DNA of 64,000 nucleotides from an uncultured virus (IMG/VR IMGVR_UViG_3300017747_004610) (IMGVR_UViG_3300017747_004610); one strand, 5' to 3'; positions 6,037 to 23,645 are shown, numbered from the stretch's first letter. A program made the numbers and translations. The notes: generated by a model from the letters alone, not told the origin.

Positions 6037-6707
6037 ATTTAGAAAACTTTGTTTGGGAACCTAAATGTTATGAAGGATTCCGAGAAACCGTTGAAAAAGA
6101 AATTTTCGTGGATAAAATTTACGAAAGATTTTTTGAAGTTGAAGAGGGAGATGTGGTATTTGATATTGGTGCGAGTCTTGGTCCATTCACCTATTCTATT
6201 TTACACAAAAATCCTTCACAGGTGTTTGCCTTTGAACCAAGTTTTGAAGAATTCAAGACATTAGTTTTGAACACCAGACATGGAAATGTTACTCACATAA
6301 ACAAAGGTATTTCCAACACCATTGGAGAATTCGAATTTTCAGAAGTATTTGATGTTTCAGGTAATCATAAACTTTATTCAACCACATTTAATAAAGTAAT
6401 CCAAGATTACAATATTAAAAAAATTGATTTCTTAAAAACTGACTGTGAAACTGGAGAATACGACATTTTCACTTTGGAAAATTTGTTTTGGATTAAAAAT
6501 AATGTGAGAAAAATTTCAGGTGAATGGCATTTAAGAGAAGAATGGATGAAGGAAAAGTTCAGAATATTTAGAGATGTTTATTTAAGATTTTTCCCTAACT
6601 TCAAAGTATATTCATTTGATGGTATTGACATTACTTGGTCAATTTGGAATGAAAATTTTATTCCTTATTACAACGAAATTATGATTTATATCGATAATAG
6701 AAATTAA
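6033..6707 (+). CDS. FkbM-family methyltransferase
   Basis: VVFDIGASLG, FAFEP, IDFLKTDCETGEY, GEWH. Confidence 0.85.
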   Translation: MNLENFVWEPKCYEGFRETVEKEIFVDKIYERFFEVEEGDVVFDIGASLGPFTYSILHKNPSQVFAFEPSFEEFKTLVLNTRHGNVTHINKGISNTIGEFEFSEVFDVSGNHKLYSTTFNKVIQDYNIKKIDFLKTDCETGEYDIFTLENLFWIKNNVRKISGEWHLREEWMKEKFRIFRDVYLRFFPNFKVYSFDGIDITWSIWNENFIPYYNEIMIYIDNRN

Positions 6708-7513
6708 ATCAAACTACTTGGTACGTAATTTCTGAAGTTTGAATAAATGTGATTCAATAATGATTTTGAATAATTTTGATTGTGTTTCGGTCCCGGATGA
6801 ATATTATCAACCGCATCATCTATGAATGACCCATATGTCCCATCAAACCTATTGAACTCATTATGTGTTGTAGGAATACCCATCCATCCATTCCACAACC
6901 AATTACATTTTTTGGATTCTAAAAAATATTTTATTAAGAGGTGATTTTTATACCAATTCATAAAATCTTGATAATCATTCTGAATCGTTGTTAAACTATG
7001 TTGGATTTCTCTTCCCTCTTCAGTTTCCTCTGTGTAACCCCACTGTGAAGTTATCATAAATGGTTCTAATCCTCCATCTTTGGTGTATAGTTCTCTTCTT
7101 TGTGGAGAAGTATACATAATCAAAACTAAATCAGGTTTGATAAAATCATAATAAGTTATCAAACATCTTGATATGTAATCATTACTTCTCCCTCCCATAC
7201 CAAAATTATGGTTTACTCCATTCGAAATTAATTTAGAAAATTGAGCCGGCCACGTTTCATCATTATTAACACCAACCCCTTCTGTATTTGAGTCCCCAAT
7301 ACTCATTATCTTAAATCCGTCTTTATGAATAGAGTCTCCTCTGAACCCCAATTCATTATATGTATAGGTACATAAACGAGTTTTGTCAGATCCAGATGTT
7401 TGATACGACTTGTTGACCTTCTCAGATAAATTCCATTTATAGCTCGAAATTTCAAATCCTTCAGGTGTCCAATATTTCAAATTATCTACACAGGGGTAAT
7501 AGGTTTGATTCAT
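6704..7513 (-). CDS. SGNH/GDSL-fold hydrolase or acyltransferase
   Basis: NELGFRG, IGDSNTEG, GGRSND, DNIHPG. Confidence 0.75.
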   Translation of the reverse strand: MNQTYYPCVDNLKYWTPEGFEISSYKWNLSEKVNKSYQTSGSDKTRLCTYTYNELGFRGDSIHKDGFKIMSIGDSNTEGVGVNNDETWPAQFSKLISNGVNHNFGMGGRSNDYISRCLITYYDFIKPDLVLIMYTSPQRRELYTKDGGLEPFMITSQWGYTEETEEGREIQHSLTTIQNDYQDFMNWYKNHLLIKYFLESKKCNWLWNGWMGIPTTHNEFNRFDGTYGSFIDDAVDNIHPGPKHNQNYSKSLLNHIYSNFRNYVPSSLI

Positions 7514-8589
7514 TATATTAAAGTTTTAACAGGCGTAATAAATTCTTGTAGGTTACTCCAACTATAATTGTTTGGTAAGAAAGAATTAACTTCTTTTATA
7601 AATTCATTATACTCCGAATGAGATTCATTCCAAATTTGTTCTAATAAAAAATCCTCTTCACTAAATGTACCCCAATTAGTTATCTTACCAAAAAACACAT
7701 TTACCTTTTCACCAAAAATAGAATACATCAAATCGTAGAATAACTTCATTTCTTTATAATTTTTTTGTTGAACTACAAATGAAGTTTTTATGGTCCTTAA
7801 AGTTGGTATTGTTGAAATAAACTTTAAGTTATCTAATAATATATCCCAATTGCCATTTATTCTTGTTTTTGTTTCATAGGTTTCTTTAGTTCCTGCATCA
7901 ACACTAATTTCACAACTTGTAACATATTGATGTATGTTCGGCATCGATTCCCACATTTCTTTAGTCCAACGTGTAGCATTAGTGTGTAAGTGAATTGATT
8001 TCAGTTTTGGCCATTTGGATTTATCAAAATTTCTTAAAAAATCTCTAAAACCAACTGACACAAATGGATCTCCACTACCCGTTATATATAATGTATTCAC
8101 CTCGTTTCCATATGCATCTTCAATATCTTGTATGTCTTGTTTTACTTTTTTTATTTTATTACTGTCCGCAATAATCATATTTAATCGACATGAAGGACAT
8201 TCAAGATTACAGCTCCTGTCCATTGAAAATTGTACTAACTGTGGCGAAGTTAATTTTCCTTCCTTATATTTTTTTATTTTTATATCTAAATTAGAGCTTA
8301 ATTTATCTTTGTGGTAAAGAGGATAGACTCTACCAACATCTCCAAAGGTTTTCAATTGATGTATAAACGGGCAATGATTATGATCACAATATCTATATGA
8401 CCCATCTAATATACTATCTCGAATATCATTTGCTTCTTCTGAATTCCATGCGTCGTATGGTTTAGTATTTTCAGGTAAAAATTTAGTTAACCATGACGCA
8501 CAACATAAAAATCTTTGATGGTCATGAATTTCTATAGAAGTGAAGGGAACCGCACAAATATAATTTTTTAATAAATTTTTTTTCACCAT
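7513..8589 (-). CDS. Radical SAM protein with N-terminal SPASM/twitch-like Cys cluster
   Basis: CAVPF...LCCASW...YRYCDHNHCP, CNLECPSC, GSGDPF, LHTNA, ISVDAGTKETY. Confidence 0.9.
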   Translation of the reverse strand: MVKKNLLKNYICAVPFTSIEIHDHQRFLCCASWLTKFLPENTKPYDAWNSEEANDIRDSILDGSYRYCDHNHCPFIHQLKTFGDVGRVYPLYHKDKLSSNLDIKIKKYKEGKLTSPQLVQFSMDRSCNLECPSCRLNMIIADSNKIKKVKQDIQDIEDAYGNEVNTLYITGSGDPFVSVGFRDFLRNFDKSKWPKLKSIHLHTNATRWTKEMWESMPNIHQYVTSCEISVDAGTKETYETKTRINGNWDILLDNLKFISTIPTLRTIKTSFVVQQKNYKEMKLFYDLMYSIFGEKVNVFFGKITNWGTFSEEDFLLEQIWNESHSEYNEFIKEVNSFLPNNYSWSNLQEFITPVKTLI

Positions 8590-8646
8590 AAAATTATCTC
8601 AATTTATTTTTCGTATCTAATAGACACACAGAAATTTTCTATCATT

Positions 8647-9096
8647 TTATAAAAAATTTCTTTGGCTTTCTACATCAAGAGGATTATTCATCATAAACCC
8701 AATCAAAGTATACCTTTTTCCAACACAATTATTTACTCGATGGTATTCTTCTCCGCTAAAATATACCATATCTCCAACCTTTGGAGTGAATTCATTGTTG
8801 TCAAAAATAAGCTCACCTCCCGTAAAATCTTCATTAAGAAAAACAATGAAAGACCATGGATTATGATGCAAGTGTGGAATTTCAACCTGATTAATACTGT
8901 CATCCACCATTTGAACTCTGAACTTTTTGAAAGAAAAATTTGAGAACTTTTTTACTTCTAATTCTCTTCCCATTAAATCAACAAAATAAAATTTATAATA
9001 TTCATCCCCATAATATTTTTTATCTTCATTGTGGAAAATATCCATGAAATAATTAATTTCATCAGAAGTTAAAAAAGATGGAATATATTTTATCAT
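8647..9096 (-). CDS. 2OG-Fe(II) oxygenase (P4H-like)
   Basis: PHLH, FIVFLNEDFTGGEL, YHRV, GKRYTL. Confidence 0.8.
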   Translation of the reverse strand: MIKYIPSFLTSDEINYFMDIFHNEDKKYYGDEYYKFYFVDLMGRELEVKKFSNFSFKKFRVQMVDDSINQVEIPHLHHNPWSFIVFLNEDFTGGELIFDNNEFTPKVGDMVYFSGEEYHRVNNCVGKRYTLIGFMMNNPLDVESQRNFL

Positions 9097-9098
9097 TG

Positions 9099-9626
9099 TT
9101 AAAATAGTTTTGTTTCAGTTCCTAATTCTTTATAAGTTATAAAATAAACAAAAGAATATCGTGTACCTTTGGTGATTTCGGTAACTTCATGAAGAACTTC
9201 AGAATCCATTTTATATAATAATCCCTTTTCTGTCGCCAACTTTCCATCAGGATTATAGGTGATAAGTTCACCTCCCTCAAAATCATCATTTAATTTGGCT
9301 CCAATGATTAAGGCCCAATCATTTTGTCTTTCTCTATCAACGTGTTTGGTAAATTTACCACCCGTAAAAAATTCATGAGCATAAAAATAGTTGCCTTCTT
9401 TTATTTTATTGTTTGGATACTCGTCTTTCAAAAAATCAGAAATCAAATCGAAAAACCATTGTGTCGACTCTTCTCGTTTGACTTCACAAATATTATAATC
9501 TAATCTAGATTTATGTAATCCCGCAGGTGAACAAACATCAGGGCAATATCTAACATTAGATTTACCAAAATAGGAAATCCATGATATTACTTCGTCACAC
9601 TGCTCATTTGTCAATTTCATAATCAT
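9099..9626 (-). CDS. 2OG-Fe(II) oxygenase (P4H-like)
   Basis: KHVD, LNDDFEGGEL, LHEVTEITKGTRYS. Confidence 0.85.
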   Translation of the reverse strand: MIMKLTNEQCDEVISWISYFGKSNVRYCPDVCSPAGLHKSRLDYNICEVKREESTQWFFDLISDFLKDEYPNNKIKEGNYFYAHEFFTGGKFTKHVDRERQNDWALIIGAKLNDDFEGGELITYNPDGKLATEKGLLYKMDSEVLHEVTEITKGTRYSFVYFITYKELGTETKLF

Positions 9627-10168
9627 TATATAATTTGTTGAGGTATCATTAAATCACTTTTTTTCACCCAAAATACCATAGAGTATCTTACACCTTCAGT
9701 AACTTCACTAACCCAATGTGGTATTTTTGAGTCAAAACTGATACAATTTCCTCTTGAGGAGTTAGCAATATAATCTTCAAACATCAAGTCACCCCCTACA
9801 TAAGATCCATGTTCAGACAATTGGATAATATACGACCTATATCTTTCCCCTCTTTCCTTGTCACCAGAATCATAATTAAGAACATTATTATCCCTATGAA
9901 CAGGGAAAGAATCTCCAACGACATATTTCCTTACCAATAAGTTATGAACCTGTTCTTCATTTGAGAATGTAAATGGTTTTAGATTCAACTCAGGAAAGAT
10001 AGAAAAAAACTCTTCGGGTATATCTTCGTGTGATACTAGCCCTTCTTGCCCACATTTACCATATCTCCTCCCCCTTTCAATAACATCCAAAACTCCACTT
10101 TCAAAGTATTGAATGAAATAATCACACAAACTATGACTCAATAAAATTTTTTCTTCAATTGATTTCAT
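9626..10168 (-). CDS. 2OG-Fe(II) oxygenase (P4H-like)
   Basis: VHRD, YVGGDL, PHWVSEVTEGVRYSMVFW; start moved to ATG 10168 (ATGA overlap with upstream stop) from the track's 10213. Confidence 0.85.
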   Translation of the reverse strand: MKSIEEKILLSHSLCDYFIQYFESGVLDVIERGRRYGKCGQEGLVSHEDIPEEFFSIFPELNLKPFTFSNEEQVHNLLVRKYVVGDSFPVHRDNNVLNYDSGDKERGERYRSYIIQLSEHGSYVGGDLMFEDYIANSSRGNCISFDSKIPHWVSEVTEGVRYSMVFWVKKSDLMIPQQII

Positions 10169-10746
10169 ATGATTTGTTTCTCTATTTGTTTTTGATTGAG
10201 TATATCGATACAAAAACTTCCAGCATAAACTATCCTCTTTTTTTCCGAGTTTGGAGTCGGTATTGCAGTATGTCGTATGTCTGCTGGAAATATAAATATA
10301 TCCCCAACTTCAGGTAAAAATTTATATCTTTGTTTATTTTCGTCTTCAAATACTATACATCCTTCATCCCCACTTATTTCATCTGTTGTCTGTAAATAAA
10401 ACGTGAAAGTATAATCTGTTAAAATATTTGACCTACCAGAAGGATGAACTTGAATGTGTTGATGCATCCATTCTAAATTGAACCCTTTTTTTTGAGTATA
10501 CACCCAATAATGTTGAGCATAATTGGTGAATTTTTTATTAGATATATTCTCTATTTGATTTTTAATATATGAATTTATCGATTGAAAACACTCCGTTTCT
10601 ATTTCTATCCAAACAGAATTATCATTGGTATGTGTTGCCATTCCATCATTTAACTCAACATATTTCAAAAATTCATCAATAGAATACTCATTATTGTACT
10701 TCCCTTTATATATTGTGAACTTTTCAGATAACTTTATTGGCGTCAT
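10165..10746 (-). CDS. Putative 2OG-Fe(II) oxygenase (TIGR02466-like)
   Basis: WMHQH, FTFYL, GDIFIFPADIRHTA, RIVYAG. Confidence 0.75.
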   Translation of the reverse strand: MTPIKLSEKFTIYKGKYNNEYSIDEFLKYVELNDGMATHTNDNSVWIEIETECFQSINSYIKNQIENISNKKFTNYAQHYWVYTQKKGFNLEWMHQHIQVHPSGRSNILTDYTFTFYLQTTDEISGDEGCIVFEDENKQRYKFLPEVGDIFIFPADIRHTAIPTPNSEKKRIVYAGSFCIDILNQKQIEKQII

Positions 10747-11345
10747 ATGATAGATGTTGGTGACTTGAATTTTATAATACCATCTCCCTTTACGAAAATT
10801 CCATTCTTAAAATAAGTCCAGTTAATCGTATGAATTGGAGTAACTATTTTTGTAAATTTATGTGGGTCAATCTTATATTCATAATAATTCAACTCACTTT
10901 GTTTTCTAAATGTAAAATAATTAAAAATCGATAAAATACAATTATCATTAGCAATAGTTTTACAATAATCTTCAAATTTTTCGTAATTGATATCGTCATG
11001 TGTATCCATGAATATTCCATCAAATTTTTGATTAAGTTTTGGGATAACCTCCACCCAATCTCCAAATATAATGGTTACATTTGATTTGTTTTTAGCCCAA
11101 TTTTGAGCTTTTTCATAAATCTGAGGATTAATTTCAATACAGGTATAATGATTAGCTAAACTACTCATTTTGTTTGCAGAAAATCCCATACCAAAACCAA
11201 CATCTAAAACGTTACCCCCATTTTGACAAACTATATATGAGTACATTTCCATCAAAGATTTTGATGCAGAATCCATAACAATAGATCTCGGGTTATTCTT
11301 AAAATGAATATTTTTATCCGTAAAAACGACTACTTCATCTTTCAT
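10743..11345 (-). CDS. Class I SAM methyltransferase, GAMT/RMT2-like
   Basis: GGNVLDVGFGMG, CIEINPQI, GDWVEVIP, FDGIFMDT. Confidence 0.8.
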   Translation of the reverse strand: MKDEVVVFTDKNIHFKNNPRSIVMDSASKSLMEMYSYIVCQNGGNVLDVGFGMGFSANKMSSLANHYTCIEINPQIYEKAQNWAKNKSNVTIIFGDWVEVIPKLNQKFDGIFMDTHDDINYEKFEDYCKTIANDNCILSIFNYFTFRKQSELNYYEYKIDPHKFTKIVTPIHTINWTYFKNGIFVKGDGIIKFKSPTSII

Positions 11346-11357
11346 GTGTATTATACA

Positions 11358-11789
11358 TTATAGTAAATCTTTTTTATTAAAACGCTCGTATCTCCCATAA
11401 TTACTCAATAATTCTTCGCCCTTATATATTATTCGGTTAGTAAGGAATGTGTCCTTATCTATGTTGGACTTATCGAATCCACTATTAATAAAGTAGTATG
11501 GTGTAGTATAAATCCAATGGCATCCTTTTGTCAACTTTACATAGGTACGGTTATCTGACGGAAAATCAGGTCCATATAAAAATATGTCTTTGATATGAGT
11601 ATAAAGTTCGTTAGGTAATAGAAGTAATTCAGATTCTAATATTGGATACAAACCTGTTTCTCCATTCCAAACTTCAAATGGATTAATTTGAGATGGAATG
11701 TCTTTGATTGCAAATACACCAATTCCTTGGACTCTACTTGGTTTTAACCTTACAAAAATTTTGGTAGATATATACTCGAAGGGAGTCAT
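11358..11789 (-). CDS. SET-domain protein (putative lysine methyltransferase)
   Basis: RLKPSRVQGIGVFAIKDIP, YFINS, RIIYKGEELLSNY. Confidence 0.8.
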   Translation of the reverse strand: MTPFEYISTKIFVRLKPSRVQGIGVFAIKDIPSQINPFEVWNGETGLYPILESELLLLPNELYTHIKDIFLYGPDFPSDNRTYVKLTKGCHWIYTTPYYFINSGFDKSNIDKDTFLTNRIIYKGEELLSNYGRYERFNKKDLL

Positions 11790-11932
11790 TACATATGCTT
11801 TGCAATAAACAATTCAAAAAACTTGGCAACTGTTTGATTGACTTGTGTTTTTTCAGTTTGACTTAAAGCACTTGTTTTTCTTGTCTCAACTTGAGACATA
11901 GTTACTTTCTTATATAATGATGGATTTGTCAT
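11789..11932 (-). CDS. Small 47-aa protein or candidate substrate peptide
   Basis: Not in track; MTNPSLYKKVTMSQVETRKTSALSQTEKTQVNQTVAKFFELFIAKHM*; starts 7 nt after the Hint gene stop and its TAA overlaps the SET ATG (TAATG). Confidence 0.75.
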   Translation of the reverse strand: MTNPSLYKKVTMSQVETRKTSALSQTEKTQVNQTVAKFFELFIAKHM

Positions 11933-11939: not shown

Positions 11940-14195
11940 TTATTTATTGTGAACTAAAATTTTATTTGCAAAAAAGTTATGATTTTCCGAAACACTTAAT
12001 AGATTGTAAACAGTATGTGAGCTTACATCTTCTTTAACACTAATAATGGTTATATCAGTTTTATCATCTTTAATACATACATCACCTTCTTGAAGATTTT
12101 TCGCTTCAACCCAACCTTTTTCTTTTACGAAGAATGGATGTTCAGGAGTTGTAGTTAATAATGTCGTATCATCAAATACCAAATCAATAACATCTTCAAC
12201 ATTATGTATTTTCAAATCACCAACAATACCTAATTCAGTTTCTCCAGTCAATTCATTATAAGTAAGAACTTTTTCCCCAACAACAACATCTTCAATATTT
12301 TTGTATTCTCCATCAAGTAAAGTTATTTTGGTACCCGCAACAAAACAACGATTGTGTACTAATCGATTGTTTGCAAAAAAGTTATGGTTGTTTTCCACTA
12401 CTTTTACATTATAAACAATTACTGCCTCTGAAATAATATCAATTGATTTAATAAGGGACTCTGTACCATCTTCCTTAAGGATTTTAATTCCGACTTCAGC
12501 TTGTCTAGTGGTCAACCCATAAACGTTAAGTGTATACTTAGGGTCTTGTGATATCCAACCGATTTGACGTGAATAAATTGGGTGGTCCAACGTTGACTCC
12601 AAAATTGTATCATCCTCGAATGTATACTTTACTGTTTTGTCAACTTTTCTAGAACCAACACCTCTAACTTTTTGTTTTTCAACCATAGAGGTATTAAAAT
12701 TATAAGATAAAACTACATCACCAATTTGAATATTTTCAACATTTTTTTGTGTTTTATCTTCCAAAGTTATTTTTGTACCAGCAACAAAACAAGGTGCGTT
12801 ATGTGAAATTACTCCGTTGAATGGTGTTGACCCACTAATAATATAGGTATCAGTATCTTCAGCGTCAAGTTCTACTAATTTCAAACTAGTATCCGTAGTG
12901 ACATAAAAATTGACCTCATCGATCCCAATCAAATCGCCATCGATGTCATACAAATAATCAACTTCAGGTCTCAAATAAACGGAAAGTTTATATTTGGAAA
13001 TGTTTGTGGAAGAATCATAAACTAAAAAGTGTTTATTTGCCCCGATAAATTTAGATTCTGAATCAACCACGATTTCAACTAACCCCCCATACTTCAATTG
13101 TTTCTCATCCTTAAAAACAACTTCAGATGTAGTCATATAAGACCCTTCGGGAAAATATTGTCCTTCAAATGTCCAATTCATAATTTCTGAATTTATTTCA
13201 ACTTGAGGAGACCCTGAAATGAAAAACGATTTAATAAATTCTCCGACACCAACATCTGCAATCGGCTTATACTCCTCATCCTCCATTAAAATTTGATGAG
13301 TTGACAATAGTCCACCACAATCCAATTTTATGAAATTTGTGGTGTATTCATAATAATGATGGTCAGATATTTTATTAACATATTGAGTATCATCAACTTC
13401 AGATTGAATACTGGTTGGCAATTCGAATATTGAGCTAATCTTATAATTGTGTAATGTAATTATATCTAAATTACCTCCATACACAATATGAAAACTTCTA
13501 ACCGAGATGATATGATCATCCTCATCTAAACTAGAAGGCCCATAATGATATTGTTGAATAATTTTATTTTCGGTATTTATTGAACTTAAAAAAGATGCCC
13601 ATCTGTCCTCGTCACTTTCACCTTCAACAGTAGAACCTATTTTATAAAAATCTATTGGATTGAATTGTTCAATCATGTCCTTAACCGCAACATCAGGGAC
13701 ATTTGGTGAATTAATTATTGAATCTAAACTATTGTTAGATTCTGTTGAGGACGAATAAAAGTACGAAACTACTTTGGATGATTCATTATTTGACGTAAAT
13801 AAATTAAGAAGTTCTACAGTACCTTTACAATAGGTACTATCAAAAAGTGCAGACTCGTCATAAGCCAATCTCAGTATAAATTTATCACTTGAGTCAGGAA
13901 TCGTCGCAGGATAAATTGTATTAATATCTTCATCATGTAAATTTATAACCGTAACAAATGGTGCGTCAGCAGTTATAGTATTTGAAATATGAGTTACAAT
14001 TTTATCATGAATGAAAGGCTTATATACAATATCAAGTTGAGTAATGTTATTTGTCTGAAGTACACTTATAAATTCGGTAAAATCGAAATTATATAATTCA
14101 TTACCAACGATACTTGTATCGGTGTTAAACTCCAATAATCTTAAATTATCATTCGTGTCTTTAACAAAGTCAGCCGAAAATAAAGTTCCTTTCAT
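11940..14195 (-). CDS. Circularly permuted ATP-grasp-like domain fused to three tandem Hint (intein-like) domains
   Basis: N-terminal SADFVKDTNDNLRLLEFNTD. Hint1 ~G295-N466 (degenerate start, ends ISHN); Hint2 C469-N615 (CFVAGT...STLDHP...VYN...LVHN); Hint3 C617-N750 (CFVAGT...TTPEHPF...VYN...LVHN-K). Confidence 0.85.
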   Translation of the reverse strand: MKGTLFSADFVKDTNDNLRLLEFNTDTSIVGNELYNFDFTEFISVLQTNNITQLDIVYKPFIHDKIVTHISNTITADAPFVTVINLHDEDINTIYPATIPDSSDKFILRLAYDESALFDSTYCKGTVELLNLFTSNNESSKVVSYFYSSSTESNNSLDSIINSPNVPDVAVKDMIEQFNPIDFYKIGSTVEGESDEDRWASFLSSINTENKIIQQYHYGPSSLDEDDHIISVRSFHIVYGGNLDIITLHNYKISSIFELPTSIQSEVDDTQYVNKISDHHYYEYTTNFIKLDCGGLLSTHQILMEDEEYKPIADVGVGEFIKSFFISGSPQVEINSEIMNWTFEGQYFPEGSYMTTSEVVFKDEKQLKYGGLVEIVVDSESKFIGANKHFLVYDSSTNISKYKLSVYLRPEVDYLYDIDGDLIGIDEVNFYVTTDTSLKLVELDAEDTDTYIISGSTPFNGVISHNAPCFVAGTKITLEDKTQKNVENIQIGDVVLSYNFNTSMVEKQKVRGVGSRKVDKTVKYTFEDDTILESTLDHPIYSRQIGWISQDPKYTLNVYGLTTRQAEVGIKILKEDGTESLIKSIDIISEAVIVYNVKVVENNHNFFANNRLVHNRCFVAGTKITLLDGEYKNIEDVVVGEKVLTYNELTGETELGIVGDLKIHNVEDVIDLVFDDTTLLTTTPEHPFFVKEKGWVEAKNLQEGDVCIKDDKTDITIISVKEDVSSHTVYNLLSVSENHNFFANKILVHNK

Positions 14196-14251: not shown

Positions 14252-14794
14252 CTACAAAAGGGTCTTGCCCTTAGAAGTTGTAGTTCTCGAAATACAAATG
14301 TGAGTTAGTTCCAAACTTTGCGGTAATTTTAACTGAAAATCGATAACATCGTATATTTCAGAAAAATTAACCTTATTAAAACCAACTCTTTTATTGTGTT
14401 CCAAAGTATTCGGATATAAATTAACAATTCTCACTTTTTTATCGAGATTTGAATTAATCATCTTCAAAGAGGATTGTTGTAACTTTAACTTACTTTCCCG
14501 ATAATCGTCAAAACTTCCATTATTAAAAATGGCCGATGTCAGAATGTTGAAAATTGTCTTATCCTTGTATTTCCACTGGTCGAAAAGTTCTTCGAATATT
14601 TTCTGTTGGTAACTCGGATGATAAGTATTATTTATGAAAACATCTAAATCAACAACATCATTCAATATTTTTTCGTAATTTTTCAAGTCATATCCATTAC
14701 TTCTTGAAAATCCGATAACTTCATGATTTTTTCCCAACAAATCAAACAACCCTTTTCCTAAGAAATCACTGTGTCCTGTTATTCCTATCCTCAT
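14252..14794 (-). CDS. Short atypical SDR / Rossmann-fold oxidoreductase
   Basis: MRIGITGH...LG, GFSRSNGYD, VFINN, YRESK (YxxxK). Confidence 0.75.
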   Translation of the reverse strand: MRIGITGHSDFLGKGLFDLLGKNHEVIGFSRSNGYDLKNYEKILNDVVDLDVFINNTYHPSYQQKIFEELFDQWKYKDKTIFNILTSAIFNNGSFDDYRESKLKLQQSSLKMINSNLDKKVRIVNLYPNTLEHNKRVGFNKVNFSEIYDVIDFQLKLPQSLELTHICISRTTTSKGKTLL

Positions 14795-15303
14795 ATCAAA
14801 CTAACTGGTTCTTTGATATTTTCCTTGAATAAAAATATTATTAGTGAATATCTAATCCCATTTTCAATTTTGGTCACCTCGTGTTCTCTAGTATTTCTGA
14901 AAGAATATATCGTCCCCGCTTTTTTCGGAATAATCTCTTTCGGTCCATACAAAATAAAATCACCTCCATCATAGTCATCATTCAAACAAACTCCGACATT
15001 TAATTTTTGATTAGGATAGTATATATCACTATGTCTTTCAAATTGATTTCCGGACTCGTATTTGTGTAAATGTATTACTTCAAACGGTTTGACTATTTCA
15101 ACATTCTCATCTAAAAGCAAAAATTCAGTTATTTTATCAAAAATCCAAGAGACATTTTCATTTCTAAAAATGTTGTAATACGTATATGTTATTTTTTCTC
15201 TTGGTCTTTCAACATGTATACTATTTGCATCTCGATGAGTACCTTCAATTTCTTGAGTTAATTTTATTATCTTATCACACTCTTCTTTTGAAAACGATAC
15301 CAT
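14791..15303 (-). CDS. 2OG-Fe(II) oxygenase (P4H-like)
   Basis: RHSD, LNDDYDGGDF, EHEVTKIENGIRYSL. Confidence 0.85.
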   Translation of the reverse strand: MVSFSKEECDKIIKLTQEIEGTHRDANSIHVERPREKITYTYYNIFRNENVSWIFDKITEFLLLDENVEIVKPFEVIHLHKYESGNQFERHSDIYYPNQKLNVGVCLNDDYDGGDFILYGPKEIIPKKAGTIYSFRNTREHEVTKIENGIRYSLIIFLFKENIKEPVSLI

Positions 15304-15339
15304 GTTTTAATAATAAAATAATTTGATTAAAAATCAAAT

Positions 15340-15456
15340 TTAATGGTTGTAAATAAAAGGGTCTCTCTTTTTCAACTCTTCAATTTTCTTTTTTAATTCT
15401 TTTTTCCTTTTGCGGTCTTTAATTTTTTTCAAAAACCAGTCAATAATTTTCTTCAT
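15340..15456 (-). CDS. Small basic protein ending DPFIY (carbamoyltransferase-associated, SxtK/DUF5989-like tail)
   Basis: Not in track; MKKIIDWFLKKIKDRKRKKELKKKIEELKKRDPFIYNH*; ATGA overlap with the carbamoyltransferase stop. Confidence 0.7.
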   Translation of the reverse strand: MKKIIDWFLKKIKDRKRKKELKKKIEELKKRDPFIYNH

Positions 15457-17120
15457 AGTATTTTGTGTATTATATAATTATCTAAAACTAACAAGTCCAA
15501 GTCAGTATCCTTGAAAGTTTCTATTGCATTAAACGGATTCAGTACCATTGTTTTATCTTTAACGTTGAATGATGTATTCAATATAATTGGATACCCACTT
15601 AGTTTTTCAAACTCAATTAATAAGTCGTGAATAACAGTATTTTCATATACAGTTTGAATTCTTGACGTTCCGTCCACGTGAACAACTGCCGATAATTTAT
15701 CTGCGTATTCTTCTCTAACTTTAACAATTTGATTCATGTATGGTACATCATCAATTGTGTAGAAAAACTCATTCTGTTTCTCTTTAATAACCATAGGGGC
15801 AAAAGGACGAAACCCCTCTCTTTTCTTAATCAATTTATTAATTCTGGATTTCATATCGGGTACAGTAGGGTCGGCTAAAATAGACCTGTGTCCTAATGCT
15901 CTTGCTCCGAATTCGATTCTATCTCTATACCACCCAACTACTTTACCTTCATGGATTTTTTTGGCTACGTATTTTATTAATATATTGTAATCGTGAATTT
16001 CAAAAAAGTTCAAATTTTTAATGTGACCCATATAAAATTCAACATCATACTTTGGTCCCAAAAAAGGATTCTTGGTAACTCTTTTTGTTAATTTTTTATT
16101 TTGTACAAGGTAATGAATACAAGCTCCAACACAGGATCCAGCATCAGATGGTGCGACTGGTATCCAAATTTTTTCAAACTCAGAATTGGATACTATCTTC
16201 CCATTCGCAGTACCATTGTACGCCGAACCACCTCCTAAGCAAAGATTATTACTACCAAGATTTTTCAAACTTTTGATAATATCAAATAAAACTTCTTCGT
16301 ATCTTAGTTGAACTGCCGCTGCTAAATTTTGATGAATTGTAGTAATTTCTTCTTCAGTTAATCTTGGTGAAATACCTAAATGTTCTATTAGTTTTTCGTT
16401 GAACATCAATTTTTCTGACTTATCCCAACAAAAAACATCCATATCACAGATTAATTCTCCATCTTTGAATTCTATTAAACTTCTAATTTTTTCAATATAC
16501 TCTTTAGGGTCTCCGTATGACGCTAATCCCATTAATTTATATTCTCCTTCATTTGGTTTGAATCCCAAATACGAAGTCATTGTAGAATAATAAAGTCCTA
16601 ATGAATGTGGATATTTACCCAAATCATGATATTCAATTCCATCATTATCCGCCAAACCAAAAGATAATGTGTCAATTTCACCAACACCATCAATAGATAA
16701 ACAGATTGCCCTTTCAAAATCGGAAGTGAAAAAAGAATAATACTGATGTGCCAAATGGTGTTCGGAGTAAAATACTCTTCCCTTAAATGGCTTCAAATGT
16801 TTATTTACATCTGATATATTTTTTAAGATTTTAACTAAAGATTTCAAAGAATATTTCGGTGACGTAAAAAAGTTTTTCTTGATGTTACTCAATACTCTTT
16901 TTAGTTTCAGATTGAGGTCTTCATAATAACAAACCATTTCAATATCATCATAGGTTATGTTATAATATCCGAAAATATGTTGAATCGTATTAATTGGAAA
17001 AGAACTGTCGTGTTTGATTCCCGTAAATTTTTCCTCTTCACAAGCAAACACCAACTCCCCGTTTTTGAATAGACAGGCGGATGAATCGTGATAAAAGGAT
17101 GAAATGCCAAGTACGTACAT
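15453..17120 (-). CDS. Carbamoyltransferase, NodU/CmcH/TobZ family
   Basis: LGISSFYHDSSA, EHHLAH, IDGVGE, GEYKLMGLASYG, EFGARALGHRSILADP, REGFRPFAP, HVDGTSRIQTV, LNTSFN. Confidence 0.95.
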   Translation of the reverse strand: MYVLGISSFYHDSSACLFKNGELVFACEEEKFTGIKHDSSFPINTIQHIFGYYNITYDDIEMVCYYEDLNLKLKRVLSNIKKNFFTSPKYSLKSLVKILKNISDVNKHLKPFKGRVFYSEHHLAHQYYSFFTSDFERAICLSIDGVGEIDTLSFGLADNDGIEYHDLGKYPHSLGLYYSTMTSYLGFKPNEGEYKLMGLASYGDPKEYIEKIRSLIEFKDGELICDMDVFCWDKSEKLMFNEKLIEHLGISPRLTEEEITTIHQNLAAAVQLRYEEVLFDIIKSLKNLGSNNLCLGGGSAYNGTANGKIVSNSEFEKIWIPVAPSDAGSCVGACIHYLVQNKKLTKRVTKNPFLGPKYDVEFYMGHIKNLNFFEIHDYNILIKYVAKKIHEGKVVGWYRDRIEFGARALGHRSILADPTVPDMKSRINKLIKKREGFRPFAPMVIKEKQNEFFYTIDDVPYMNQIVKVREEYADKLSAVVHVDGTSRIQTVYENTVIHDLLIEFEKLSGYPIILNTSFNVKDKTMVLNPFNAIETFKDTDLDLLVLDNYIIHKIL

Positions 17121-17647
17121 TATGAATTATATTTTTCAGGATATTCGTTAATTAAGGTTATCCCTCCCTCATTTATTGCATGGTCATAAGCGTTTTTAAC
17201 ATCATCCGCAGTCAAACAATCAAAAAATTTTATTGTTTGAGTTATTGACTGAAACTCTTTGAAATAATTATTTCTGTGTTGAGGGCCTGGATTCAAAGGT
17301 ATTTCCGATCCTTTACCAACTCTAATAATCATATTTGGTTTCCACTGACCATTGCTCATTAATTCCATCTTATCAACATGGTTTATTAATTGATTAGCCG
17401 CACAAATCAAAAAGTCCCATCTCGGATAAAATGTAATCACAAATTTTCCTGTCATTGCAATACCCAAAGACATTCCCATTTGAGAATCTTCCATCACCGG
17501 TAATTCAACCATTTTTTCTTTTGGAACATCGACCAAAGTTGAACTCATCGGGTTTCCCGGAAATAATATCTGTTGTCCAAGAAAAATAGTATCATCCATT
17601 TTTCCTAACTTGGTCATTGCGATTGTTAATGAATCTTTGTATTCCAT
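17120..17647 (-). CDS. TPP-dependent E1 beta-like subunit (pyrimidine-binding domain only)
   Basis: FLGQ, ELPVMEDSQMGMSLGIA, NQLINH, PGPQH. Confidence 0.85.
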   Translation of the reverse strand: MEYKDSLTIAMTKLGKMDDTIFLGQQILFPGNPMSSTLVDVPKEKMVELPVMEDSQMGMSLGIAMTGKFVITFYPRWDFLICAANQLINHVDKMELMSNGQWKPNMIIRVGKGSEIPLNPGPQHRNNYFKEFQSITQTIKFFDCLTADDVKNAYDHAINEGGITLINEYPEKYNS

Positions 17648-18843
17648 TATATTAAACTTTTGAAAAACTTATAATCAGTTTCATCTTGTAATATACTCGT
17701 AACTTTTTTCTTATTAAGTTCAAATCTTTCCTGATTATTTTTATAAAAATTAATTATTTCGTCTTTGATAGAATTTAATCTTTTCACTTCATCAACAAAC
17801 ATAAAAAGCCGTTTTCTCGGGTCTTTTTCATTGTCATAAGAATAATCAATAATATCATCAAACAAATCAAAATCATATCTTTCTTTCAAGAACTTATTAT
17901 GTTCAAAATTAGCCAATATCAAAGGAATTTGAGAATAATAAATTGGCATCAATGATTTTTCTGTAATATGGATTACATCTGTGGATATGTAACCAGTTTC
18001 GGTAACAATATTAACATATGAATTTCTATAAGGATTCATTTCATATGTTTTATAAAAGTCAATGAAGTAAGGTGGCTGGTCAACTCTATAATCTTCTTCA
18101 AACCTACTTTTTTTAATCCCTGATTTTTGAAGAAACAATATTTCATTATAATATTCTTTGAAATCGTCCCTATCAAAAACTTCAAAAAATAAGTTGTATG
18201 ATGGTGTTCCATCTGGATCAGAGAATCGTTCGTTTAATTCATTACCTCGTAACATCGTCCAATCAACTTCATCTAATATCCCTTCTCGTTTCAGTAAAGC
18301 TAACAGAGACACTCTATGTGGTTTTAACATTCTGTTATAACACATAAAAAATGATTCTTTATCTTTTTGAAATTCGTACTTGAATGAGGTCATTCCTTCG
18401 ACCGCCACATAAGGTAATCTATTTGAAGTATGTCCAACAACTTTACTATTCAACTCATTGATTAATTTTTTTATTTTCTGATTTCCATTGATTGCAATTA
18501 TCTGATTCGAATTAATCGATTCTTCATTACAATATTTTTCGATAAGTTTTATTACGTTTCCATTGTCGGACTCATGTTCCGCTAAAATAACAAGAAAACA
18601 ATTGGAGTATAATTTCATTAACTCTTTTACTTTTGAGGATGCAGGAAGTGATTGGAAATTTTCCATATAAGTTCCTGTTATTGTAAATGAATAATATTTT
18701 TGTTCGGAGTCAACCTCAAAATTATTTATATCAATCATTTTAATCCCGTCAACTTTGTTAGCGGTCAAAGTGTTAAAAATATGTTCCTTTTCGTTTTCGA
18801 TATTACTATCAAACAATAAATTAAAATACTTCATAATCTTCAA
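17647..18843 (-). CDS. Putative glycosyltransferase (GT10-like TEK motif family), paralog 1
   Basis: YNRMLKPHR, NIVTET, HITEKSLMPI, DYSYD. Confidence 0.55.
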   Translation of the reverse strand: MKIMKYFNLLFDSNIENEKEHIFNTLTANKVDGIKMIDINNFEVDSEQKYYSFTITGTYMENFQSLPASSKVKELMKLYSNCFLVILAEHESDNGNVIKLIEKYCNEESINSNQIIAINGNQKIKKLINELNSKVVGHTSNRLPYVAVEGMTSFKYEFQKDKESFFMCYNRMLKPHRVSLLALLKREGILDEVDWTMLRGNELNERFSDPDGTPSYNLFFEVFDRDDFKEYYNEILFLQKSGIKKSRFEEDYRVDQPPYFIDFYKTYEMNPYRNSYVNIVTETGYISTDVIHITEKSLMPIYYSQIPLILANFEHNKFLKERYDFDLFDDIIDYSYDNEKDPRKRLFMFVDEVKRLNSIKDEIINFYKNNQERFELNKKKVTSILQDETDYKFFKSLI

Positions 18844-19473
18844 TTAAAATACAACCCACTTACCTGTTCCATAATGAGGCCAATGTTTTTCATACTCGTA
18901 GTAAACTACTTCATTAGGTATTTCCTCTTTTTTGCCCCATGTTTCGATTGTTGGAGTATTTGTAGAAACTCCATTATCTTCAACAACAAATCTAACAGGT
19001 AATTCAAAGTTTTTTATATATTTGTAGTTTTCCATAAAAGTACCTGTCTCAAAAGTCATGTCCCCAATAAAACACCAAACAATTTCATTCTTATTATCTC
19101 GTTTATTAGACATTGCAACGCCAGTAGCAATTGGAATTATTCCACCGACAATCGCCGAACTATAGAATTTTTTTTCTTTATTGATGATACTAATCGATCT
19201 CCCATCCAAAATTTCTGATTCTAACCAATCAGGTGATACTCCTTTAAGTAAAGCATGATAATGAGACCTCCATGTAGAAAATACCCAATCATTCTCTGAA
19301 ATTCTTTTGAAGATTTCAATAAGATGTTTTTCATTACCTCCACTCAAATGAACAGGGCCTCGTATTTTACCAGTTTCCCAACTTTCAACTATTTTATTTT
19401 CAAAATGAATAAGTTCTTCTTCATTCCAGTTGTGTTCTCTAACTATTGGATACTGTTCTAAATTTTTTATCAT
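18844..19473 (-). CDS. TPP-dependent E1 alpha-like subunit
   Basis: GPVHLSGGNE, STWRSHYH, SAIVGG, GD...(N) TPP motif FIGDMTFETG...VEDN. Confidence 0.9.
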   Translation of the reverse strand: MIKNLEQYPIVREHNWNEEELIHFENKIVESWETGKIRGPVHLSGGNEKHLIEIFKRISENDWVFSTWRSHYHALLKGVSPDWLESEILDGRSISIINKEKKFYSSAIVGGIIPIATGVAMSNKRDNKNEIVWCFIGDMTFETGTFMENYKYIKNFELPVRFVVEDNGVSTNTPTIETWGKKEEIPNEVVYYEYEKHWPHYGTGKWVVF

Positions 19474-19487: not shown

Positions 19488-20099
19488 TTACTTGTTAAAG
19501 GATACTATACTAAACCTTGGCGTTTTCGCATAACTTTCAACTGAACTTACAAAATGAGGTTGTCTGAAAACTTTATTATTCAATAATACTACTCTATTGA
19601 ATTTAGGAAAAATTTGTTGGTTAAACTCTTCATCTGCTTCAGAACAAATGTTAAGAATACCACCCCAATCCCAAATCCACTCTTTATTTACGTAATAGAT
19701 TAAATTAATTTTTCCTGCATAGTCATCCATGTGCATTCTGTAATGGTCTCCACTATCAAGTTTATAACATCTTATGTCAAACTGATTCAAGATAAATGGT
19801 GATACTTTTTCAAGGGCATCAATAAAGTAATCTTCGAATATTTTCGATATGTAATCATCTTTCTCCAAATCAGATGACCTACTGAAACTAGAAGTATAAA
19901 CCTCGGTTTCTTTTGGTAATGTTGATGACTCAGTTTTGAATACATGCGAATAATGATTTTCTCTTTCCTGTAAAGTTTTTTCCCACGTGTTCGCATTAAC
20001 AAATAACTCATGTAAATTATTTGCATAATCATTGGGTAAAAAATTATCGATTACAGAATATCCCTGTTCGTTCAGTTCCTGTTTAACTCTATCTAACAT
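19488..20099 (-). CDS. 2OG-Fe(II) oxygenase
   Basis: [33 protein letters not shown]. Confidence 0.85.
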
Positions 20100-20109
20100 A
20101 TTAACTTAG

Positions 20110-20517: not shown

Positions 20518-20518
20518 A

Positions 20519-23644: not shown

Positions 23645-23645
23645 A

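Follow-up and report, generated by a model that had tools for sequence, protein, structure and literature searches.

A viral ligase-like protein with tandem Hint domains as a candidate core of a peptide-tailoring module in T4-like phages

In this work, we analyzed a 64,000-nucleotide stretch of DNA (the window) from an uncultured virus (IMG/VR IMGVR_UViG_3300017747_004610) and propose that one of its genes could stand at the center of a phage module for peptide tailoring, in which the tail of the encoded protein is the substrate and its Hint domains cut that tail free, a reading whose chances we judge to be evenly balanced. Translation of the minus-strand open reading frame at 11940..14195 yields a protein of 751 aa, in which an N-terminal domain (N-domain, residues 1-294) is followed by Hint1 (295-466), the dipeptide AP, Hint2, a single R, Hint3, and a final K. 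Its junctions read ...GVISHN-AP-CFVAGT..., ...RLVHN-R-CFVAGT..., and ...ILVHN-K-stop, identical to those from which the original prediction had described three Hint domains placed back to back and joined by one or two residues. The parts of the gene are as follows.

11940..14195, minus strand: whole gene (751 aa plus stop), with ligase-like N-domain, Hint1, AP, Hint2, R, Hint3, and K
13314..14195, minus strand: N-domain, residues 1-294, ATP-grasp-like, with a putative metal-binding hairpin (D9/E22/N24) at the extreme N terminus
12798..13313, minus strand: Hint1, residues 295-466, with Gly as its first residue, an acidic block F, a His-Asn end, and no TxxH block
12792..12797, minus strand: spacer Ala467-Pro468 between Hint1 and Hint2, from translation
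12351..12791, minus strand: Hint2, residues 469-615, intact by sequence and of BIL/PT-HINT type (Cys1, TLDH, HN)
12348..12350, minus strand: spacer Arg616 between Hint2 and Hint3, from translation
11946..12347, minus strand: Hint3, residues 617-750, intact by sequence and of BIL/PT-HINT type (Cys1, TPEH, HN)
11943..11945, minus strand: terminal Lys751 after the last His-Asn, from translation

An identical 751-aa protein is carried by a T4-like phage record of 326,291 bases, and a search of this complete 326-kb relative for a second copy of the gene found none. From 2749 candidates, 820 homologues were obtained at E <= 0.001, the protein matches 250 clusters at 50% identity, which have the same layout, and a sister clade contributes 248 relatives from one virus collection; with the 820 homologues and 250 clusters in view, we set a chance explanation aside. 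Among the loci retrieved, the family occurs in virus records only, where its members bear the public names "hypothetical protein" or "intein/homing endonuclease." Some of the 150 N-domain representatives listed are 282 to 339 aa long and cover most of the domain, as fragments or whole genes. In 50,697 deposited phage records, a set from which relatives near the window's genome were possibly left out, the whole protein matches inteins only (13 records from Vibrio and Ruminococcus phages, over residues 453-615), and the N-domain alone has no tblastn match; the Cys-tail relative P0260 likewise matches none of the 50,697 records. A literature search found no description of a ligase-Hint phage system, in agreement with the original prediction, which knew of no phage system with such an architecture. 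The word TATAAATA, the late-promoter word of T4, occurs at 13 sites compared to 11.7 expected, none of them ahead of the 751-aa gene.

Judging from its predicted structure, the N-domain probably belongs to the GspS/glutathione-synthetase group of ATP-grasp-type carboxylate-amine ligases. At E <= 0.001, Foldseek finds 12 matches to its AlphaFold model, every one of them a YgiC, a YjfC, a GspS, a glutathione or homoglutathione synthetase, or a putative GspS; the same group occupies ranks 1-6, 8, and 13 of an all-against-all VIA search with the model; and the order of the fold is the ATP-grasp order as in GspS and glutathione synthetase. GspS, YgiC/YjfC, and eukaryotic glutathione synthetase are circularly permuted ATP-grasp ligases. 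The solved members of this group (GspS, YgiC/YjfC, trypanothione synthetase, and glutathione synthetase) join an amine to the carboxylate at the end of a short peptide. Nine residues (D9, E22, N24, R109, D113, D119, Y122, K172, and R233) are invariant in 88/88 N-domains from two clades, among them D9, E22, and N24 of the N-terminal D-F-x8-LLE-x-N motif already highlighted in the original prediction; D9, E22, N24, K172, R109, and R233 lie on strands of the model and, by their motifs, could correspond to the metal- and ATP-binding residues of solved active sites. At the sequence level, in contrast, residues 1-294 have no family in Pfam, NCBIfam, or PHROGs, a Pfam scan of 23 N-domain members at E <= 10 found ATP-grasp families in 0/23, and an N-domain profile searched against PDB sequences found no ATP-grasp protein and one chance match (E 0.099). 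The viral structure library BFVD gave no match at E <= 0.001, and the closest language-model look-alikes are ATP-grasp families, with only 5 of the best 10 in agreement, which is rated as weak. The GspS-like ATP-grasp fold foreseen for this domain is supported by the Foldseek matches of the model and not by sequence.

By profile comparison and by model, Hint1 is a Hint-fold domain, even though Pfam, NCBIfam, and PHROGs have no match to it. An hhalign comparison with Hint3 gives it 89.6% probability (E 1.9e-6); the alignment spans 139 columns and takes in the terminal HN. Its AlphaFold model (pLDDT 84, pTM 0.80) matches 43 solved chains at E <= 0.001, and among the matches listed all have the Hint fold (BIL, Hedgehog, or intein); the best is BIL2 of Tetrahymena BUBL (6y75, E 2e-8, TMq 0.68, TMt 0.77), and the BIL of C. 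thermocellum (2lwy, TMt 0.83) is also among the best. The residue at position 1, Gly295, is invariant in 23/23 sequences, and the same 23-sequence alignment has neither a T-x-x-H block nor any conserved Thr/His block. Given Gly1 and the absence of TxxH, Hint1 should be unable to form an N-terminal thioester. Its acidic block F (D444, E446, and D449) and terminal His-Asn are kept. As far as its sequence allows us to judge, then, Hint1 is half-disabled, and only the C-terminal Asn reaction is plausible; the observation that Gly replaces Cys1 while His-Asn is retained had been made before, and the defect concerns the N-terminal side alone.

Judged by their sequences, Hint2 and Hint3 are Hint domains of the BIL/PT-HINT type and not true inteins. 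Pfam recognizes two Hint domains, at residues 469-615 and 617-750, with a PT-HINT match of 74.5 bits compared to a cut-off of 27.7 and further matches to Intein_splicing, Vint, Hint, and Hint_2. Both have Cys1, a T-x-x-H block (TLDH and TPEH), and a terminal His-Asn, and C469, T535, H538, H614, N615, C617, and H686 are invariant in 20/20 aligned relatives that are 47 to 74% identical to the window protein over its full length; in 8 of these 20, the last domain lacks the terminal His-Asn. The closest solved sequence to Hint2 is BIL2 of the Tetrahymena BUBL1 locus (6y75, E 5.4e-11) and that to Hint3 is the C. thermocellum BIL (2lwy, E 1.5e-10). True inteins were considered for these domains and rejected: A, R, and K occupy the +1 positions in the 751-aa protein, the domains are terminal and interrupt no conserved host protein, and Pfam finds no endonuclease family in the 751 residues. 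The original prediction had argued for BIL-type Hints from the lack of a +1 nucleophile and of an endonuclease, and our data agree. From the intact catalytic residues, and from the behavior of BIL domains, which yield mainly cleaved products according to PMC7664689, we infer that Hint2 and Hint3 would cleave themselves.

Three things in and around these loci had been overlooked: a 47-aa partner, an end-tag on the neighboring enzymes, and a sister clade with a Cys/Trp-rich peptide. The gene also adjoins a glycan island and fibre genes. Its surroundings in the window are as follows.

11789..11932, minus strand: 47-aa partner gene (MTNPSLYKK...AKHM), which begins 8 bases past the stop of the 751-aa gene and overlaps the start of the next gene
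11358..11789, minus strand: SET-like (lysine-methyltransferase-like) gene, 143 aa, ending in ...KDLL, recognized by homology to L030:12893-13327
6704..11345, minus strand: seven tagged neighbors, namely a GDSL-like protein, a radical SAM protein, four 2OG-Fe(II) oxygenases, and a methyltransferase, with the ends SLI, TLI, NFL, KLF, QII, QII, and SII
14252..18843, minus strand: upstream neighbors, of which a 180-aa unknown (TLL), a 2OG oxygenase (SLI), a carbamoyltransferase (KIL), and a 398-aa unknown (SLI) are tagged
17120..17647, minus strand: the sole untagged upstream neighbor

The partner gene follows the Hint-ligase gene in 31/31 and in 76/76 related loci, and its residues Y7, K8, K45, and H46 are invariant. 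A predicted complex of the partner with residues 1-468 scores 0.89, compared to 0.38 for the best control, on a scale whose mark was met by 116/157 solved complexes and 2/215 mismatched pairs, a calibration that is approximate here since our own alignments were used. Three runs share at least 92% of the contacts, with a partner pLDDT of at least 87. In this predicted complex, the partner clamps the N-domain to Hint1, and it would complete or brace the ligase.

The neighboring enzymes end in a K..K[ST]LI tag, which is found on 12 of the 13 neighbors in the window. Across loci, tagged genes become proportionally fewer the farther one moves away from the module, from 452/516 genes in the first 2-kb step to 174/282, 85/242, 35/138, and 15/55 in the following ones. 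Two hydrophobic residues end 223/469 same-strand genes in multi-Hint loci and 538/765 in Cys-tail loci, where 9% is expected, compared to 7/42 and 8/42, respectively, of the opposite-strand genes. The complete 326-kb relative has 42 such tagged genes, 13 of them around the module. A role of the canonical Hints as the tag reader was rejected, as the tag is even commoner where canonical Hints are absent (538/765 compared to 223/469). Basic-hydrophobic C-terminal signals for degradation, such as that of MuA, are similar to this tag as well. Among the tagged neighbors, the 143-aa SET-like protein has 56% identity (E 2e-58) to L030:12893-13327, which itself matches Pfam SET at 9.6e-7, whereas its own Pfam SET match has an E value of only 0.066; a homologue is present in 20 of the 31 multi-Hint loci and stands directly after the partner in 18.

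Members of the sister clade have, after Hint1, a Cys/Trp-rich peptide of ~29 aa in place of Hint2 and Hint3, with Trp halogenases nearby, and two loci (L048 and L049) have a Cys-rich peptide of ~30 residues between Hint1 and a canonical Hint. A Trp halogenase is found in 51/79 loci with a Cys/Trp-rich tail compared to 1/31 multi-Hint loci, and the SET-like gene in 20/31 multi-Hint loci compared to 4/74 Cys-tail loci, although absences in these counts are soft because many loci are short. The enzyme set follows the chemistry of the tail, in a comparison of two clades that may amount to a single evolutionary event; we count this, and the peptide placement in L048 and L049, in favor of the tail as the substrate. 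Across the family, the tails are variable and their carriers conserved, and the arrays of tailoring enzymes are clustered and tagged.

To describe the tails themselves, we surveyed 359 junctions, 297 tails, and, for Hint number, 307 sequences. The spacers are between 0 and 14 residues long and are absent from 22 junctions. Between Hint1 and Hint2, the family has AP in 92 cases, SP in 31, no spacer in 22, and otherwise up to 12 residues, such that the residue after Hint1 in relatives is often Ser (the 31 SP junctions) or the next Cys itself (the 22 without spacer). AP or SP make up 123 of the 359 spacers, all at junction 1 and in the close clade, and P468 is invariant in 20/20 close relatives. 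At later junctions, the spacer is led by R or K, with a lone R in 36, RA/RF/RG/RY/RT/RS in 21, K/KA/KS in 10, and longer forms that reach 14 residues, and a Lys lies within the last four residues in 251/297 family tails. Canonical Hints number 0 in 94 proteins, 1 in 75, 2 in 130, and 3 in 8, and the Hint-less members retain the 47-aa partner. Linkers among homologues thus differ in length, from 0 to 14 residues, yet are not random, with AP/SP at junction 1, R/K first at later junctions, and Lys in the tail. Since spacers measure 0 to 14 residues, the release of Ala-Pro and Arg units is unlikely to be the general purpose of these proteins. The products once proposed, Ala-Pro and Arg thioesters plus free Lys, do not hold generally, 22 of 359 junctions having no spacer at all; what stands of that interpretation is the three BIL/PT-HINT-type Hints with Hint1 disabled N-terminally, without such defined micro-units as general products.

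How might the module work? In the scheme that we propose, the ligase, the clamp, and Hint1 would form a scaffold on which the tagged enzymes dock via their tags. Docked enzymes would modify the tail, that is, the short basic pieces beside each His-Asn plus the terminal Lys, and the ligase, by analogy with its solved relatives, would act on a C-terminal carboxylate of the tail. Asn466, Asn615, and Asn750 would cyclize and break the bond after each, with Hint1 contributing its His-Asn and acidic block F for Asn cyclization, and Cys469 and Cys617 would form thioesters and break the bond before each. As BIL domains mostly cleave, the protein should end up as a ligase-Hint1 unit together with two free Hints and the tiny pieces; minor splicing, if it occurred, would leave ligase-Hint1 with a short APRK tail resembling the tails of Hint-less relatives. 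In this scheme, we infer cleavage, ATP use, and all of the substrates. The following counts against it: with one or two residues per junction here and 22/359 junctions lacking a spacer, there is little tail to serve as a substrate, and consuming a domain of ~150 residues for each tiny product is costly. A more detailed version, which we offer tentatively as a possibility that falls well short of probable, is a reversed RiPP logic in large T4-like phages. A single chain would unite the tail, its own ATP-grasp ligase, and a Hint serving as built-in "leader protease," the 47-aa clamp would complete the scaffold, and the enzymes would find it by their own K..K[ST]LI tag. The sister clade would yield a Cys/Trp-rich peptide of ~29 residues that is halogenated and hydroxylated; in the window, where extra BIL Hints would bracket pieces of one or two residues, the products would be Lys, Arg, or X-Pro units in modified form or a short APRK-type tail.

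Several of these data would also fit a reading that we regard as rather unlikely, in which only the release of the ligase matters. Hint2 and Hint3 would then be self-removing autoprocessing or regulatory appendages, or multiplied BIL-type insertions, the spacers would be meaningless, and the ligase would find its real substrate elsewhere, in a small molecule, a polyamine, or the free C-terminal carboxylates that the tagged enzymes offer. The variable number of canonical Hints (0-3), the spacers of 0 to 14 residues, and the Hint-less members that retain the partner point this way, as does the tag, which requires a free C terminus just as a ligase substrate would, and so does the use of peptide end carboxylates by the solved relatives. 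The predominance of cleavage in BIL domains, as described in PMC7664689, is in line with it as well. What it leaves unexplained is the tail Lys (251/297), the R or K that leads later spacers, and the enzyme sets that track tail chemistry, and the invariant catalytic residues in both Hints would still need a selective reason. The opposite emphasis, that of the original prediction in its strict form, is doubtful: on this view, the purpose of the polyprotein is to cut out Ala-Pro and Arg in thioester form and Lys in free form as activated blocks or products, e.g., an X-Pro diketopiperazine. It would account for the position of each spacer between an Asn able to free an amine and a Cys able to activate a carboxylate, for the invariant P468 (20/20) and the AP/SP spacers confined to junction 1 (123/359), for the same bracket around a ~30-residue peptide in L048 and L049, and for the SET-like gene next door. 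Yet it has to contend with 22 junctions without a spacer and others with up to 14 unrelated residues, with Hint-less members that have no bracket, and with a single-turnover process.

The Cys1 residues also raise the idea of a Hedgehog-like transfer, in which an outside nucleophile attacks the Cys469 or Cys617 thioester and ligase-Hint1 or a Hint becomes attached to a virion protein, a glycan, a lipid, or a host target. Hint1 and the canonical Hints are indeed similar not only to BILs but also to the autoprocessing domain of Hedgehog (1at0 and 6tyy, E ~1e-5), the last domain lacks His-Asn in 8/20 aligned relatives, such that the N-terminal reaction alone is possible there, and the gene lies beside the glycan island and fibre genes. 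We nevertheless find such a transfer improbable, given that no sterol- or acceptor-binding region lies past the Hints (the protein stops one residue after His-Asn) and that Hint-less members, which have no thioester-forming Cys1 domain, still possess the ligase along with the partner and the tagged enzymes. Least of all do we favor the view, suggested by the public names "intein/homing endonuclease" and "hypothetical protein" of the relatives, that the Hints are relics of mobile inteins without a present role, or a chance arrangement. This appears very improbable in the face of a position fixed at the C terminus, catalytic residues invariant among relatives of 47 to 74% identity, and a layout common to 250 clusters, together with the lack of an endonuclease, a +1 nucleophile, and an interrupted conserved host protein.

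Returning to the tailoring module with its tail as the substrate, its interest lies in enzyme arrays that are already on record. The arrays of 2OG-Fe(II) oxygenases and Trp halogenases in T4-like marine phages have been missing a substrate ever since their description. According to Iyer et al. in 2010 (PMC2938197), cyanophage Syn9 has ten dioxygenases and two tryptophan halogenases in arrays that were predicted to produce amino-acid-derived secondary metabolites. Those arrays and the loci described here both belong to T4-like phages and line up unrelated 2OG-Fe(II) oxygenases in tandem, together with Trp halogenases; they differ in that the Syn9 article names no substrate, ligase, end-tag, or partner and contains the words "Hint" and "intein" 0 times. 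A gene-encoded tail on a ligase-Hint scaffold is a concrete candidate substrate for such arrays, and the reversed RiPP reading, if true, would name the long-missing substrate of the cyanophage-type dioxygenase/halogenase arrays. The module, if it holds, would also mean a natural use of Hint chemistry (Asn cyclization and thioester formation) for the release of small products, enzyme recruitment by a short C-terminal tag, and a two-piece ATP-grasp ligase, three things from which peptide engineering could profit. With 250 clusters at 50% identity and 248 sister-clade relatives in one collection, the family is common, yet its public names are the two quoted above. Taken as a whole, the ligase-Hint module looks like an undescribed viral route to modified peptides or amino acids.

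Several known systems come close to its parts. Like E. coli YgiC/YjfC, the synthetase domain of glutathionylspermidine synthetase (GspS), trypanothione synthetase, and eukaryotic glutathione synthetase, the N-domain has a metal-binding D...E-x-N hairpin, putative in our case, ahead of a Rossmann-like part. It differs from these ligases, whose chains have 368 to 603 residues, in being ~100 to 300 residues shorter, in lacking a sequence-level match to them, and in being fused to Hints and always, perhaps necessarily, accompanied by a 47-aa partner. The A-type BIL/PT-HINT domains (2lwy; 6y75 and 6tmm) are the closest solved proteins to Hint2 and Hint3 by sequence and to Hint1 by fold, and Hint2 and Hint3 share with A-type BILs the Cys1, the TxxH, the terminal His-Asn, and the lack of a +1 nucleophile and an endonuclease. 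Known BILs, however, are embedded in variable proteins (secreted ones or toxins) or separate ubiquitin-like units, whereas the phage Hints form the end of an enzyme, arranged head to tail with one or two residues between them and with one copy N-terminally disabled for good, as its sequence suggests.

In ciliate BUBL polyproteins, ubiquitin-like units are separated by BIL domains. As in our module, Hint-type domains are placed there to cut out intervening cargo, but that cargo is folded and ~70 residues long, whereas the phage cargo would be 0 to 14 residues or a Cys/Trp-rich peptide of ~29 residues, with a ligase in front. In RiPP pathways, in borosins (enzyme-core fusions), and in the scaffold-peptide "pearlin" pathways, clustered enzymes tailor a gene-encoded peptide that is then cut from its carrier. 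The phage module would resemble these in its hypervariable core, its conserved carrier, and the fusion of an enzyme to its own substrate. It would differ, as we propose, in that release is by Asn cyclization of a built-in Hint instead of by a protease, and in that recruitment apparently relies on a tag on the enzymes instead of a leader on the substrate.

The 751-residue protein is read from a single open frame (window 11940..14195, minus strand), and its parts follow one another as listed here.

Layout of the 751-residue protein (residue numbers; gene on the minus strand)
Residues 1-294: N-terminal part (N-domain), read directly
Residues 295-466: Hint1, starting with Gly and ending ...ISHN
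Between Hint1 and Hint2: Ala-Pro spacer, read directly
Residues 469-615: Hint2, from CFVAGT to LVHN
Between Hint2 and Hint3: Arg spacer, read directly
Residues 617-750: Hint3, from CFVAGT to LVHN
C-terminal residue after Hint3: Lys, with two stop codons next

Frame, domain order and junctions, together with the Pfam matches, agree in all details checked with the original prediction of three tandem Hint domains behind an N-terminal domain. Pfam matches Hint2 and Hint3 (PT-HINT, 74.5 bits versus a cut-off of 27.7; also Intein_splicing, Vint, Hint and Hint_2) and no endonuclease family in the protein. In profile alignments, Hint3 pairs with Hint2 at 100% probability and with Hint1 at 89.6% probability (E 1.9e-6; 139 columns, including the last His-Asn). 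For the AlphaFold model of Hint1 (pLDDT 84, pTM 0.80), 43 solved chains pass E <= 0.001, headed by BIL2 from the BUBL1 locus of Tetrahymena (6y75; E 2e-8, TMq 0.68) and followed by the BIL of C. thermocellum (2lwy, TMt 0.83), the autoprocessing domain of Hedgehog (1at0, 6tyy) and, after these, inteins; by sequence, the nearest solved chain is BIL2 for Hint2 (E 5.4e-11) and the C. thermocellum BIL for Hint3 (E 1.5e-10).

The catalytic positions C469, T535, D537, H538, H614, N615, C617 and H686 are invariant in 20/20 relatives (47-74% identical over the whole protein). Hint1 has Gly at position 1 in 23/23 relatives, none of which keeps a Thr-x-x-His block in this domain, so that no thioester start is possible at its front; Asn466 is invariant, His465 nearly so, and an acidic block (D444, E446, D449, T450) lies at the place of intein block F. 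Judged from these residues, Hint1 may be able to cut behind itself, via its C-terminal side. We rejected inteins as an identity for Hint2 and Hint3, which have R and K as +1 residues, carry no endonuclease and interrupt no host protein. The titles of Dassa 2004 and Aranko 2013 refer to splicing or ligation that needs no nucleophilic side chain. BIL domains have no +1 nucleophile and yield predominantly cleaved products (PMC7664689), and a review describes Asn-dependent cleavage without ligation for A-type BILs (PMC7765530). The last domain of 8/20 aligned relatives (P0010, P0040, P0059, P0065 and others) is of a different Hint type, starting CFTYDT or CFTADT, lacking the final His-Asn and followed by a short end tail such as ...NKTFKRQAIFQ.

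For the N-domain of the window protein, Pfam, NCBIfam and PHROGs gave no match; 23 family members gave none in Pfam at E <= 10, and its profile found nothing among all PDB sequences. A structural relationship is suggested by its AlphaFold model, based on 23 relatives that are 37-81% identical (pLDDT 82, pTM 0.67): all 12 Foldseek matches in the PDB at E <= 0.001 are E. coli YgiC/YjfC, glutathionylspermidine synthetase, glutathione/homoglutathione synthetase or putative GspS, and the same group takes ranks 1-6, 8 and 13 when the model is aligned, independently of Foldseek, to 48,161 representative chains. The ATP-grasp-like fold proposed for residues 1-290 is supported by a moderate match with modest TM-scores (TMq 0.34-0.43 at E <= 0.001). 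The matched enzymes belong to the ATP-grasp ligases whose chain order is circularly permuted, and each couples an amine to a short peptide at its end carboxylate. Language-model look-alikes (ATPgrasp_YheCD/TTL 0.93, ATP-grasp_3 0.92, GshA and GSP_synth 0.89) point weakly the same way, with 5/10 agreeing. Across 88 N-domains of two clades, M1, D9, E22, N24, T25, R109, D113, A116, D119, Y122, L132, P167, K172, R233 and L243 are invariant, a pattern that fits an enzyme. The model places D9, E22 and N24 on its first hairpin and K172 and R233 on later strands; we take them, from familiar motifs and not from superposition, to be ATP-grasp metal, phosphate and catalytic positions.

Residues 1-300 match 820 proteins at E <= 0.001 among 2749 candidates, and an exhaustive search gave 250 clusters at 50% identity; relatives are publicly labelled 'hypothetical protein' or 'intein/homing endonuclease'. 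The N-domain starts at residue 1 in 139/150 listed cluster representatives, and for the remaining 11 the start of the match is internal to the query, to the matched protein or to both. Canonical Hints after Hint1 number 0 in 94, 1 in 75, 2 in 130 and 3 in 8 of 307 distinct full-length-like sequences, a pool that combines several searches and is biased toward two query proteins. Junction spacers (n=359) measure 0-14 residues, 176 of them 2 residues; junction 1 has AP in 92 cases, SP in 31 and none in 22, and later junctions have R alone in 36 cases and frequently R or K with one further residue. From these tallies the spacers are neither fixed nor random. Lys occurs within the last four residues of 251/297 tails, and Hint-less members end in short tails such as AKSY, AKQLW and KVKIEPPK.

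The gene has a constant companion. A 47-codon frame (11789..11932, minus strand) starts 8 bases after its stop and overlaps the next gene's start; homologous frames of 45-50 codons lie downstream in 31/31 loci of multi-Hint relatives, and in a sister clade the gene is followed, in all 76 loci with enough DNA, by a 42-56-codon frame whose end is [KRT]H and 1-3 further residues. Y7, K8, K45 and H46 of the partner are invariant. The predicted complex of the partner with residues 1-468 supports binding to the N-domain/Hint1 part: it scores 0.89 versus 0.38 for the best control, a mark reached by 116/157 solved complexes and 2/215 mismatched pairs, counts that are only roughly valid because author-made alignments were used. 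At least 92% of contacts are common to the runs, with partner pLDDT of at least 87; the modelled partner pairs through its residues 6-12 with Hint1 strand 428-433, and its C-terminal helix lies on N-domain residues 10, 20, 132-133 and 141.

Many neighbouring genes share a C-terminal tag of two hydrophobic residues (consensus K-x-x-K-[S/T/K]-[L/I]-[I/L] at the extreme C-terminus). Leaving aside the gene and its partner, 12/13 window genes between 6704 and 18843 carry it (SLI, TLI, NFL, KLF, QII, QII, SII, DLL, TLL, SLI, KIL, SLI), as do 20/58 in the whole window. With flank genes called by a simple longest-ORF rule, 223/469 same-strand genes are tagged in multi-Hint loci and 538/765 in the sister clade (9% expected from composition), compared with 7/42 and 8/42 on the opposite strand, and the share declines from 452/516 within 2 kb to 174/282, 85/242, 35/138 and 15/55 farther out. 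We rejected the canonical Hints as reader of the tag, which is commoner in loci without them. Pfam, run on 148 of the 311 non-redundant tagged neighbours within 3 kb, assigns about 45 to 2OG-Fe(II) oxygenases, about 19 to Trp halogenases and 7 to SET domains, others to radical SAM, GDSL/DUF6071, carbamoyltransferase and sulfotransferase, and about half to no family; the 143-residue window gene directly after the partner is SET-like.

Elsewhere in the window, a 1210-residue methyltransferase and glycosyltransferase protein on the opposite strand (2404..6036, +) has a tag-like end, ...HLLI. Two short genes (17120..17647 and 18844..19473, -) match the transketolase pyrimidine-binding part and the E1 dehydrogenase component and together resemble a split thiamine-dependent enzyme; they flank a tagged 398-residue gene (17647..18843, -) that fits no known family. 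In the gene pair 9626..10213 and 10165..10746 (-), the 195-residue oxygenase is listed with a TTG start, which gives a 49-base overlap with the previous gene; its true start looks to be an ATG lying 15 codons inside (MKSIEEK...).

In the sister clade (248 relatives in the virus collection, 26-33% identical in the N-domain; loci L046-L125, e.g., L054:8001-9488), a peptide of about 29 residues follows Hint1 ...MHN; it contains 6.3 Cys and 2.6 Trp on average, has six conserved Cys and ends in K and a single hydrophobic residue (for example sCWCPWNYCGHWCNSxYCPxC...K-L). At L048:1488-3365 and L049:8001-9953 the Cys-rich peptide stands between Hint1 and one canonical Hint ending HNKK or HNKKQY, and is thus bracketed by Asn in front and Cys1 behind. 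Trp-halogenase genes occur in 51/79 sister-clade versus 1/31 multi-Hint loci, and a SET-like gene in 20/31 multi-Hint versus 4/74 sister-clade loci, absences being soft because many loci are short; these distributions suggest that the enzymes follow the chemistry of the part behind Hint1.

The virus record that contains the window has 83,364 bases and an estimated completeness of 27%. The identical protein recurs in a record of 326,291 bases that is rated complete and also carries a capsid gene of the T4 Gp23 type (E 1.2e-62) and a single N-domain copy; there 42/381 called frames end [ILF][ILF] (16 expected), of which 13 surround the module at 304.5-321 kb, and 5/11 frames of the first 10 kb do so. 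The module is surrounded by a nucleotide-sugar/glycosyltransferase island and a collagen-like fibre. The island (19488..50638, -), most of whose genes lack the tag, holds GDP-mannose dehydratase-like genes, epimerases, DegT aminotransferases, UDP-glucose dehydrogenase, GT25, two GT7-type galactosyltransferases fused to Laminin_G_3, an Anp1-like gene and three radical SAM genes. The 1706-residue collagen-repeat protein (51660..56780, -), a tail fibre by PHROGs, ends in a Peptidase_S74 chaperone domain and is encoded by DNA of 45-47% G+C versus about 30% in the rest of the window; a 711-residue protein (57169..59304, -) has SprB repeats, shows a Hoc-like head-decoration match and probably belongs to the virion surface.

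Domain anatomy, intact catalytic residues, an obligatory partner, tag clustering at the module and the enzyme/tail match are well supported. We favour, at even chances, a mechanism in which the tail is tailored on a ligase-Hint1 scaffold and then released by Hint chemistry. Putative ligase, partner and Hint1 would form the scaffold, the tagged enzymes would dock there and modify the tail, the ligase would act on a terminal carboxylate, and Asn cyclisation and Cys thioesters would cut the tail pieces free. The window protein would yield AP, R and K or, with some splicing, a short APRK tail resembling those of Hint-less members. Our main reason for taking the tail as substrate is that enzyme sets match tail chemistry, a match that may be a single evolutionary event, since the comparison spans only two clades. 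Alternatively, the Hints might serve to release the ligase and nothing more, its substrate lying elsewhere, which we consider unlikely. More doubtful still are the strict micro-units of the original prediction, Ala-Pro, Arg and Lys as the products themselves: AP and R do recur at the junctions, in spacers that range from 0 to 14 residues.

Full-text searches covering the main text of openly available papers retrieved no literature on a protein that joins ATP-grasp and Hint parts, on its partner or on the tag, and the phrase 'circularly permuted ATP-grasp' was absent from the papers listed in one of them. For the dioxygenase/halogenase arrays of cyanophage Syn9, Iyer et al. 2010 predicted a secondary metabolite and, in the passages describing them, named no substrate, ligase or Hint (PMC2938197).
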